From assembly GCA_016840165.1 (NCBI GenBank), contig JAEOSU010000004.1, positions 1-53,813 on the forward strand: a stretch of 53,813 nucleotides of DNA, in the 5' to 3' direction. Each line of letters starts with the position of its first letter. The stretch's first letter is position 1. The notes under the pieces were generated by a model. That model saw nothing but the letters and a program-made list of their open reading frames with translations. It had not been told where the DNA came from and searched no databases. A program made the position numbers and the translations under genes. Below are positions 24,478 to 53,229 of the stretch, piece by piece. This stretch comes from Promethearchaeota archaeon (lineage in GTDB: Archaea > Asgardarchaeota > Lokiarchaeia > Sigyniarchaeales > SOKP01).

Positions 24478-25359
24478 TTATTTTTTAAAAAAACTATTTA
24501 AGATAACATTTTTGTCAAAATGAAGTTTAAATTTTTTGTTAAAGTATTCACATACATTCGTAATATCCCTCTCTAGTAACTTATCCGCATTAGGATGGTT
24601 TTTTGAAACCCATTGTATCCAATCAATAATTAAAATATTCTCATTTTCATCAATTACTATATTAAACTCGCCTAAATCTCCATGAATTATTCCTACTTTT
24701 TCATATATTACTTGAATTTGTTTTATAATTCTTTTAAATATTTTTCGAGGGTTCACGAGGGCTTTACAATAAGCTAATTCCTTTCCTCGTAAATAAGACA
24801 TTAAAACTATATGTCGATTGTATGTTATTGGTTTGGGGGTGTTTAGTTTAAGTATAAATATTTTTTTTAATGCTTCAAATTCCCTTTTTGCCGCTAAACG
24901 ATTGATATATAACCACGATAAATGTTTTCTATTTTTAATTAAATTACGAGTTTTTTTAATATTTTTAAAGCTTGTCCTTCCCATTCTATAAATTTTAAGA
25001 GCAAAGATGTTCCTATTATCGTCCATACAACTATAGACGTCAGACTCCTTTCCTTTACCGATTAATGGCCCTAACTGACTTATTTTACCTCTCTCGACTA
25101 AAGTATGAAGTGCTAAGACATCGTATCCCAGAGAATTAAGTGTGTAACCAATTTCGTAAGAGGAGGCATTTCTAACAATCAAACCTTTTTTATGGACTTT
25201 TTTAAGTCTATAACGAGTCTCTTCTAAGGGATATCGTGAGTAAAATTTAATATTGGATTCTGTGACATATTCAGAACGTTTCATACCAATTTCAATAGCC
25301 ATTAAGATCCTCAGATCTTCTTTTTCAATATCTAAAAGATATTTAGCAGCCTCAGCCAT
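24478..25359 (-). CDS. rio2: RIO2-family atypical Ser/Thr kinase
   Basis: N-terminal wHTH ending GY.L...GYD.LAL, G.GKESDVY, GRTSF, A.REF, IHGDL.EFNI, IDW.Q. Confidence 0.93.
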   Translation of the reverse strand: MAEAAKYLLDIEKEDLRILMAIEIGMKRSEYVTESNIKFYSRYPLEETRYRLKKVHKKGLIVRNASSYEIGYTLNSLGYDVLALHTLVERGKISQLGPLIGKGKESDVYSCMDDNRNIFALKIYRMGRTSFKNIKKTRNLIKNRKHLSWLYINRLAAKREFEALKKIFILKLNTPKPITYNRHIVLMSYLRGKELAYCKALVNPRKIFKRIIKQIQVIYEKVGIIHGDLGEFNIVIDENENILIIDWIQWVSKNHPNADKLLERDITNVCEYFNKKFKLHFDKNVILNSFFKK

Positions 25360-25443: not shown

Positions 25444-26229
25444 TTAGAAGATGAATTTTTTATAGGTTGAGAGGAAATTTAAGGTTTTGATGATATTAGG
25501 AATTTCAAATAAACCAATTGCTAAGCCAATCACCAGAAGGAATAGATATATATCCAATTTGGCTATATAATAAAGAAAATACGTTGATGCTTCTTGAAAT
25601 TGAAATAGAAATACTCCTTGTTGAAGATAGAAGAGAAGACTGATAGAAAGTACAATACTTGTTGATGAAAATATTATTATTGAATTATCATGTTCATAAA
25701 CTGCAATAATTAATTGTGAAATAAAGAGCAAGAGGCTAATTATTAAAGGTATTAATGCTGAAATTAACCAAATGTTATAATTGGAGGCCTTGATTAGAAA
25801 GTCATTTCCAACGTTTTCCCAGAATAATGAAGAGCTTAATATAATAAATGATACTATCGGAAGAATTAATGCTACTATTGATATTACAGTATGAAGTCTA
25901 ATAGTAAAAAAATGGGAATATTGATAATTTGCAAGCTCCTTTTCTTTTTTCGCAGTATCAAGCAAATTTTCTAACCGATTTTTTACGTGCGGAGGAATAT
26001 CTTTATTGAGTTTCTTAATCTGAAAGTTAATATCGGTAAAATCTCTAAGTAATTTGTGGATTGACTTTTCTCCTTTCTTCAACTTATCTTTTGTGCATTT
26101 AGGCCCATTCCATAAATATATTATATTTCGATCTTTATCAATAAACGCAACCAAATCATGGTAAAGTAAATGAGTACTTTCTTCAACCCATTTATCTTGT
26201 TGTTCAGTATAGATAAAGATTTTTAACAT
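25444..26229 (-). CDS. Gelsolin-like domain fused to a four-TM membrane domain
   Basis: N-terminal 'LLYHDLVAFID...IIYLWNGPKC.......G' resembles the gelsolin core; four hydrophobic segments follow. Confidence 0.65.
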   Translation of the reverse strand: MLKIFIYTEQQDKWVEESTHLLYHDLVAFIDKDRNIIYLWNGPKCTKDKLKKGEKSIHKLLRDFTDINFQIKKLNKDIPPHVKNRLENLLDTAKKEKELANYQYSHFFTIRLHTVISIVALILPIVSFIILSSSLFWENVGNDFLIKASNYNIWLISALIPLIISLLLFISQLIIAVYEHDNSIIIFSSTSIVLSISLLFYLQQGVFLFQFQEASTYFLYYIAKLDIYLFLLVIGLAIGLFEIPNIIKTLNFLSTYKKFIF

Positions 26230-26296
26230 GATTAATTCACTATGTAAGTTTTTATCTGTATCTACATATAGAGAAAAGATTTACTTTAATCTTTTT

Positions 26297-52317: not shown

Positions 52318-53229
52318 TTATTTGTTAAAATCTTCTACTAATTTTATTAGATCAGCTTTCCTGTATTTTGAAAGTACGTTTATATCGTTTTTAGAGCAAT
52401 AAGCTTTTAGTTCTTTGACGGTCCATTTTGAGTAGTCTATAATTTTTTCTTTCAGAACTTCAGGGGCGGTAGGCTTTAAGAATTCTACCGCTTTTATAAG
52501 ACTGCTGTTGACATCAAAATAGACTCTTATTTTATAATCGTTAAATTCAATCATTTTCTCATTCAATCCTTCAACAGGGCTCCATGATTCCTCGATAACT
52601 ATTTTACCAAAAATTTCAGTTTTAGACTTCACATTACCATAAATGATATTATCACCCAGAATTATATGTTGACGAGCAAATCCTGAAGGAATTTCAGATT
52701 TTAGAATAGTATCTAATCGAGATTTTTGATCTTGAGATAAAATCTTAAACTTGTTAGGCTTTCGTAGTTTATAAGGTTGCTTACCCTTATCAATTTGCTT
52801 AGATCTTTGAGATGTATCAGTTTTCTGAGTAGGTTTTTCCGAGTAGGATGATTTAGGCATTTCTTTAGGCTCTAAAGCCATATCAAGTTTCATGGAAGAA
52901 AAACCAAAAGAATTTAAAAATTCACGTGGTTCATCCCCTTGATCCACAGAAACCACTTTACATCGATGAAAATTTGCAACATTTGCCAATTCATTTTGCA
53001 ATTCAGAGGCAACCCGTGAAGCAATAAACTTTTTTCGAACTGAAGATTGTGCTCCCTTCCATATATATATCCTTCTTAATTCTTCATCAAAAATTAGGAC
53101 TACTTGTTCGGGGAGAAGTACTTTTTTTCCATTTTCTTTTAAAAATATTTCTTTTGTAATATCAATTTGATCCTTTTCCCCTGAATCATGTAACATGAAT
53201 ATCATAAAAGGCTGATAATAAGCATTCAT
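52318..53229 (-). CDS. Gelsolin-domain protein (1DGelX-like) with C-terminal SAP/Rho-N-like helix-extension-helix module
   Basis: 'L.PEQVVLI.DE..RRIYIWKG..SSVRKKFIASR.A...VDQGDEP.EF' gelsolin domain; tail 'DYSKWTVKELKAYC....I.......KADLIKLV'. Confidence 0.85.
   Translation of the reverse strand: MNAYYQPFMIFMLHDSGEKDQIDITKEIFLKENGKKVLLPEQVVLIFDEELRRIYIWKGAQSSVRKKFIASRVASELQNELANVANFHRCKVVSVDQGDEPREFLNSFGFSSMKLDMALEPKEMPKSSYSEKPTQKTDTSQRSKQIDKGKQPYKLRKPNKFKILSQDQKSRLDTILKSEIPSGFARQHIILGDNIIYGNVKSKTEIFGKIVIEESWSPVEGLNEKMIEFNDYKIRVYFDVNSSLIKAVEFLKPTAPEVLKEKIIDYSKWTVKELKAYCSKNDINVLSKYRKADLIKLVEDFNK

Follow-up and report, generated by a model that had tools for sequence, protein, structure and literature searches.

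The minus strand of the window (the whole 53,813-nt stretch of Promethearchaeota DNA analysed here) carries the gene for a ~30-kDa integral membrane protein, in which a single N-terminal gelsolin-homology (GH) domain is joined to four transmembrane (TM) helices. We coined the name GelTM for this GH plus four-TM protein. By analogy with its nearest relatives, we propose that GelTM is a membrane anchor that tethers Lokiactin filaments, a function to which we would give a probability of roughly 0.55. The open reading frame is intact and starts with ATG, as judged from the ORF list and the translation, and its features are collected in Table 1.

Cultured Lokiarchaeales form long, dynamic, actin-filled protrusions and are capable of crawling. 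To our knowledge, the only Asgard proteins known to regulate actin are soluble ones, profilins and gelsolins, and no protein fixing Lokiactin to the membrane was named in the literature that we searched. A description of a membrane-spanning gelsolin was likewise not found in full-text literature searches on Asgard and archaeal gelsolins. Three gelsolin architectures have been published for Asgard archaea, ProGel, 1DGelX, and 2DGel, none of which has TM helices (PMC7444086). GelTM belongs to a known family but has a new architecture, a GH domain combined with a membrane anchor, and stands as a fourth beside these three types. With 261 aa and four TM helices, it falls outside the ProGel class of stand-alone GH domains (~90 aa); it also falls outside the 1DGelX class, as its hydrophobic C-terminal part takes the form of a membrane bundle in the model and an X-like region is absent. 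The proteins 1DGelX, B35_GelX, and B35_Gel1/2 resemble GelTM in carrying one N-terminal GH domain and a different C-terminal module that would position it (PMC7444086; 10.1101/2025.11.30.690169), but their extension is a soluble coiled coil or disordered, whereas that of GelTM is a polytopic membrane domain. GelTM is a concrete, cloneable, and testable candidate for the Asgard actin-membrane link, occurring order-wide and in both cultured species, and, if the proposed function is true, it would be a pre-eukaryotic transmembrane actin-membrane linker.

Table 1. Positions of GelTM and its parts in the window
Feature	Position	Strand	Basis
GelTM, whole gene	25444..26229	(-)	ORF list and translation; 261 codons plus stop
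Spacer 5' of the GelTM ATG	26230..26296	(-)	67 nt, by eye from the sequence
GH domain, aa 1-95	25945..26229	(-)	AF2, Foldseek, VIA, HMM, hhalign
D31 of the 'DWG' motif	26137..26139	(-)	invariant, 45/45
WxG signature, W40-N41-G42	26104..26112	(-)	invariant W40 and G42; 'DWG' together with D31
Basic N-terminal half of the long helix (K44, K47, K49, K51, K52, G53)	26071..26100	(-)	conservation
Charged juxtamembrane helix, aa 80-105	25915..25992	(-)	DSSP helix 80-100, then helix 107-136
Four-TM bundle, aa 107-261	25447..25911	(-)	model, hydropathy, K+R counts, invariant columns

The N-terminal gelsolin-homology domain

Residues 1-95 of GelTM form a single GH domain of the ProGel or gelsolin-G2 type, and the gelsolin fold is independently supported by sequence profiles and by the predicted structure. 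The initial annotation had quoted the stretch at residues 21-53 and had drawn a parallel with the gelsolin gene at 52318..53229 of the window. The pairwise part of this parallel was marginal, with a BLASTP E value of 0.044 over 26 residues, which by itself is near chance, whereas the resemblance at the family level is real. The product of the comparison gene (minus strand) lies barely above the Pfam Gelsolin cut-off (21.3 bits against 21); it also gave a C-terminal SAP/HeH-like match (SAP E 1e-4, 22.3 bits against a cut-off of 23.9) and a match to DUF7904 (E 0.001).

GelTM was overlooked by standard Pfam annotation, although it is a fifth gelsolin-family gene of its genome. The Pfam model PF00626 (Gelsolin; gathering threshold, 21 bits) gave no match to GelTM itself at E<=10, and a six-frame search of the genome with this model returned four other gelsolin genes and missed GelTM. 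Twenty-three of 42 orthologues touched the model at E<=1, the best at 7.1e-5. A GH family profile, built from residues 1-105 of 42 GelTM orthologues, was searched against the PDB and matched villin (E 2e-9, summed over repeats), gelsolins (3e-7 and weaker), and, in one stretch, the single-domain ProGel of Thorarchaeota (7c2f_B, 94 aa; E 2.9e-5), as well as CapG, adseverin, and the Lokiarchaeota 2DGel (E 0.004). The single-sequence phmmer search of the PDB with GelTM residues 1-105 placed ProGel first (E 0.037) and the Loki 2DGel second. The GelTM family was also aligned by hhalign with a ProGel profile built from six 92-93-aa ProGel orthologues of other Asgard genomes, which resulted in a probability of 96.6% and an E value of 5.9e-10 over 47 gap-free columns (GelTM residues 25-71, ProGel residues 29-75). 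Among 1.84 billion representatives, the full-length profile further picked up proteins of 811 aa (five stretches, E 5e-5) and 834 aa (three stretches, E 1.5e-4), which, from their size and repeat count, we read as multi-repeat gelsolin/villin-type proteins.

The AF2 model of full-length GelTM, built without templates, had a mean pLDDT of 85.9 overall and of ~79-87 over residues 1-95. The DSSP assignment of the GH domain gave strands at residues 2-8, 13-16, 26-31, and 36-41, a helix at 47-64, a strand at 70-73, and a helix at 80-100, and the model shows a central mixed beta-sheet with a long helix packed on one side and a shorter C-terminal helix on the other, the arrangement by which a gelsolin fold is recognised. 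Gelsolin-family chains were almost all of the best 50 matches listed in a Foldseek search of the PDB, led by ProGel on rabbit actin (7c2f_B; E 5e-5, TM score 0.70 on the target, 24% identity). Re-alignment with VIA gave a Z of 10.3 to ProGel (rmsd 2.5 A, 84/88 residues, 25% identity) and of 9.2-10.6 to domain 2 of gelsolin, CapG, adseverin, and severin (~2.8 A, 91 residues), with gelsolin G2 as the top eukaryotic match (Z 10.6, 2.8 A). No ADF/cofilin chains were among the fold-search matches listed (Foldseek, VIA), and no Sec23/24 chains were among the matches listed in the PDB profile search, Foldseek, or VIA. Taken together, the PDB profile matches, the hhalign probability, and the template-free model with its Foldseek and VIA matches bear out the gelsolin fold that had been suggested for the N-terminal domain.

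Conservation was read from the columns of 45 aligned GelTM orthologues of the window's clade. In the N-terminal part, W14, E17, D31, W40, and G42 were invariant, and E16, L22, D25, L39, and P79 nearly so. In the hhalign alignment, D31, W40, and G42 fall gap-free on ProGel D35, W44, and G46, corresponding to the 'DWG'/'WxG' signature used to recognise gelsolin domains (PMC7444086, PMC9433394). The signature is not universal in GelTM, because the orthologues of L. ossiferum, MK-D1, and Harpocratesius have Tyr in place of the WxG Trp and Glu in place of D31. Within the long helix, K44, K47, K49, K51, and K52 were each K/R in at least 80% of the 45 orthologues, and G53 was present in 38; this basic face is a likely candidate for binding acidic surfaces of actin, the head groups of anionic lipids, or both. 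The same alignment paired GelTM K44, K49, G53, K55, and K59 with ProGel K48, K53, G57, R59, and R63, the first three being well conserved among GelTM orthologues and K55 and K59 variable. The calcium-site signature was incomplete: D25 (43/45) lies one residue off the type II Asp register in the HMM alignments and fits it in the gap-free alignment, and position 48 is acidic in 31 of the 45 (type I/II calcium-site positions). ProGel is likewise without calcium control (PMC7444086). The C-terminal 'EP..F' motif is degenerate, just as the initial annotation described it; P79 is nearly invariant in the family.

ProGel, a single gelsolin/cofilin-type domain of ~90 aa, is thus the best match by sequence and by Foldseek, and it shares with GelTM the D...WxG pattern, a Gly at W+13, and the basic helix positions. 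It differs in being a free, soluble protein of 92-93 aa, whereas GelTM adds a stalk helix and four TM helices, has the extra conserved residues W14, E16, E17, and D25, and is without the glutamates of ProGel's 'EGxEP'. Eukaryotic G2 and its homologues (severin D2, CapG D2, and adseverin A2) were the best eukaryotic structural matches to the GelTM GH domain, but with 10-14% identity only; G2 lies within soluble proteins of 3-6 repeats, and calcium-site residues are not clearly retained in GelTM.

The membrane domain and its orientation

The juxtamembrane helix leads on from the final GH helix in the direction of TM1, with P79, L86, and L90 conserved. Hydropathy analysis gave hydrophobic segments at residues 105-138, 150-180, 182-210, and 216-250, and DSSP assigned helices of the TM region at 107-136, 148-179, 182-204, and 224-260, with short strands in two outer loops. 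When modelled alone, the TM domain formed an up-down four-helix bundle (pLDDT 90.9, pTM 0.82), again with small beta elements in both outer loops. The hydropathy segments and the modelled helix at 80-100 agree with the four TM segments following a charged helix that had been noticed earlier.

Averaged over the 45 orthologues, the K+R count was 3.8 for the 15-residue stretch ahead of TM1 and 3.6 for the C-tail; loops 1, 2, and 3 had 0.5, 0.2, and 1.0, respectively. Under the positive-inside rule, these counts support the prediction that both termini of GelTM, and hence the GH domain, are cytoplasmic. No signal-like N-terminal hydrophobic segment was seen by eye, the first residues being those of the first GH beta-strand. 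The cytoplasmic orientation without a signal peptide, as the initial annotation had it, was therefore upheld by these K+R counts and by the absence of such a segment.

The TM domain has conserved residues of its own, namely R111, P124, W137, W154, E179, S188, F209/F211/Q212, D226, and FEIPN at 241-245. Because of these residues, polar ones among them, and of the structured outer loops, the TM domain is probably more than a passive anchor. Its searches returned no specific relative: Foldseek against the PDB gave nothing specific (best E 0.45), VIA against 48,161 chains gave only four-helix bundles of a generic or de novo kind, with Z values (up to 15.4) that are usual for helical bundles, and the ESM Atlas fold search, Pfam (41 members), and NCBIfam gave none. 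A feature search of the ESM Atlas returned only GelTM's own Promethearchaeota cluster. A claudin/PMP22 identity, prompted by the beta elements of the outer loops and a Pfam E value of 0.26, was not supported. Pfam PMP22_Claudin reached E 0.26-0.39 only, in 1 of 41 members; the Foldseek matches to TARP, CNIH, and Cav-gamma had E values of 0.5-1.7 and TM scores of 0.25-0.45, and the Z of 9.3-9.8 for CNIH in VIA is in the range expected for any helical bundle.

Distribution and genomic setting

A search of 5.8 billion clustered proteins yielded 82 homologues, nearly all of 259-264 aa with 100% query coverage and nearly all from Lokiarchaeia/Promethearchaeota MAGs, where they are annotated as 'hypothetical'; the full-length profile matched 109 representative clusters among 1.84 billion proteins. 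We also searched 400 Asgard genomes and found full-length GelTM in 129 of the 153 genomes of the window's order (113/134 in the window's family, 13/14 in a second, and 3/4 in a third), the ORF being intact and single-copy in most of them. In the more distant families, the GH and TM profiles both match one ORF of 252-307 aa. Outside the order, matches were limited to profile positions ~20-90 in small soluble proteins, except for one remnant (L022, below). Across the 400 Asgard genomes, the whole GH plus four-TM architecture was thus seen in the window's order only. Exact look-up identified the orthologues of Ca. Lokiarchaeum ossiferum (UYP46179.1), Promethearchaeum syntrophicum MK-D1 (QEE14692.1), and Ca. 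Harpocratesius (MCF2139422.1). GNAMCCOK entry 02486 of a published table (10.1101/2025.11.30.690169) was considered for the L. ossiferum orthologue UYP46179.1 and rejected for its wrong mass.

The orthologues of L. ossiferum, MK-D1, and Harpocratesius (L019:5017-5865, L018:4927-5784, and L020:4800-5642, all minus strand) read 'YFYSG' or 'YFYAG' against 'YLWNG', and carry an extra acidic C-terminal tail of ~25-40 aa, ending '...ILRDK..VELKEI..', that the window's clade is without. Second, divergent paralogues with the GH plus four-TM layout were seen at L025:4860-5567 (minus strand; MK-D1, 235 aa) and L023:5039-5830 (plus strand; G147, 263 aa); on the sequences, the GelTM family is duplicated in some lineages, MK-D1 included. 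In genome G279, a distance of 1.3 kb separates the GelTM orthologue (L021:4808-5566) from a gene (L021:6861-8129, plus strand) for a 422-aa protein with an N-terminal gelsolin-like domain followed by ~330 highly charged, coiled-coil-like residues. On an 8-kb contig of G058, the frame at L022:1829-3130 (minus strand) combines an unrelated-looking piece with the C-terminal two thirds of a GelTM-type GH domain, the stalk, and the start of TM1, and its 3' part is a 10-TM region that looks EamA/DMT transporter-like by eye. This frame is either a chimera made in assembly or the remnant of a rearrangement, and its contig probably comes from a Lokiarchaeales genome and was mis-binned.

The gene neighbours of GelTM are subunits of pyruvate:ferredoxin oxidoreductase and a RIO kinase. 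The order porD-porA-porB, GelTM, RIO kinase is kept across the window's family (f1) and loosely in one f3 genome, and is absent at the L. ossiferum, MK-D1, and Harpocratesius loci. An operon of shared function was considered from this gene order and rejected; because the neighbours are housekeeping genes, we read the synteny as inherited order rather than functional linkage. In a comparison that covered positions 24478-25359 of the window (minus strand) and loci L005-L016 of same-genus and same-family genomes, GelTM was 40-46% identical (41-45% where its gene order is kept within the window's family), while the RIO kinase reached ~70% and PorB 75-86%. Measured by such sequence identities, GelTM evolves much faster than the flanking housekeeping genes.

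Right after the porB stop, at 26270-26296 (minus strand), an inverted repeat (aaagat...atcttt) followed by a T run resembles a small terminator, which suggests that GelTM has its own promoter. A TATA-like 'ctatatg' was found by eye ~40 nt 5' of the GelTM ATG. GelTM is putatively transcribed from this promoter of its own, a weak inference given the genome's G+C content of ~28% (the window varies over ~28-34%). Two 151-nt contigs of one sediment metatranscriptome library matched inside GelTM with 1 and 3 mismatches; given that DNA may be present in RNA libraries, they hint only weakly at transcription.

GelTM as a possible link between Lokiactin and the membrane

The architecture is well supported: the GH domain sits in the cytoplasm, fixed to the membrane by the four-helix bundle, with its last helix continuing as a charged stalk towards the bundle. 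In the proposed mechanism, this membrane-fixed domain would bind Lokiactin, most likely along filament sides as ProGel does, and would in this way hold actin filaments at the cell membrane; the protrusions of Lokiarchaeales are one place where this could happen. Many copies confined to the membrane plane could strengthen individually weak binding into a multivalent tether, and contacts with the cell envelope could be made by the small, structured loops on the outer side.

Gelsolin G2 is a filament side-binding, phosphoinositide-sensitive domain. ProGel is also described as a filament side binder (PMC7444086). Because these closest relatives bind filament sides, tethering appears more likely for GelTM than barbed-end capping. 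Binding to Lokiactin is suggested by the behaviour of the Asgard GH proteins tested so far, ProGel, 1DGelX, and 2DGel, all of which act on actin (PMC7444086, PMC9433394); by the nearest sequence and structure relatives, which are actin-bound gelsolins; and by the basic helix positions common to ProGel, with K44, K47, K49, K51, and K52 strongly conserved. We also counted in favour of the tether the orthologues in both cultured protrusion-forming species, L. ossiferum and MK-D1, and the presence of Lokiactin genes in the genome that carries GelTM. Counted against it were the GelTM score below the Pfam threshold, the incomplete calcium signature, the degenerate 'EP..F', the replacement of the WxG Trp in three orthologues, the PorABD and RIO kinase neighbours, which give no functional hint, and the weak binding of ProGel to actin in vitro (PMC7444086). 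Only tentatively do we extend the proposal to GelTM being the first integral-membrane gelsolin and a direct attachment point for Lokiactin, arisen by fusion of a ProGel-like domain and a tetraspan module in the ancestor of the order, to which L. ossiferum and MK-D1 belong, and needed for building or stabilising the protrusions.

A GH fold alone is no proof of actin binding, as exemplified by Sec23a, whose gelsolin-fold domain has no known actin binding (PMC7444086). The fold may have been re-used in GelTM without actin, as a head with a regulatory or partner-binding task on the cytoplasmic side of a small membrane protein such as a channel, a transporter subunit, a scaffold, or an envelope-assembly factor. 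The gelsolin-like domain of Sec23/Sec24 likewise places this fold beside a membrane, but it is part of a large soluble coat protein. We consider such re-use less likely than the tether, although the conserved polar residues R111, E179, E242, and N245 near the cytoplasmic face, the structured outer loops, the degenerate calcium and 'EP..F' signatures, and the loss of WxG in the f3 orthologues examined (cultured or named species) would all fit it. The nearest relatives of the domain are the actin-binding gelsolins of Asgard archaea and eukaryotes (ProGel, 2DGel, gelsolin G2/G3, and villin), with no Sec23/24 chain among the matches listed, and the basic pattern of the long helix is common to ProGel.

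The basic helix face might also bind anionic or inositol-phosphate lipids instead of actin, with the domain flat against the membrane, regions of which the protein would shape or mark. The polyphosphoinositide-binding pattern of gelsolin G2 is (K/R)x4Kx(K/R)(K/R), and the conserved K44-x4-K49-x-K51-K52 of GelTM resembles it, which is a lead only; the match is short and degenerate. G2 is the structurally closest eukaryotic domain, and enzymes for PIP head groups are expressed in L. ossiferum (10.1101/2025.11.30.690169). With four TM helices, however, a lipid patch would be needless for membrane attachment, and actin and lipid binding are not mutually exclusive in gelsolins, so we regard this possibility as improbable. 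That the N-terminal domain faces outward and is unrelated to the cytoplasmic cytoskeleton is very improbable: the topology rests on prediction, and loop 2, which in this case would be outside, is acidic with almost no K/R, but a folded domain of ~100 aa lies ahead of TM1 with no signal peptide or N-terminal hydrophobic segment, and K+R amounts to 7.6 on the side of the N-flank and C-tail against 1.5 on the other.

For the preferred reading of GelTM as a tether, eukaryotes offer counterparts in ponticulin (Dictyostelium), supervillin, and the ERM proteins, which link the plasma membrane to actin filaments; of these, supervillin contains gelsolin repeats, though it is peripheral rather than transmembrane. 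We know of no sequence or fold relation of GelTM to ponticulin or the ERM proteins, and the likeness to all three would be one of proposed role only, that is, a functional analogy. In L. ossiferum, five GH proteins were found by Lokiactin Co-IP, all of them soluble, and membrane proteins were under-represented in that Co-IP according to its authors (10.1101/2025.11.30.690169).

Lokiactin is encoded in GelTM's own genome. Two paralogues with 81-83% mutual identity were located there (G000; C77:24266-25408 and C54:263868-264983), together with two further, more distant actin-family genes (C15 and C4), the C4 gene in a 510-aa open frame. On contig C27 of G147, Lokiactin (401062-402198) and GelTM (418908-419654) lie ~17 kb apart, which is probably a coincidence.
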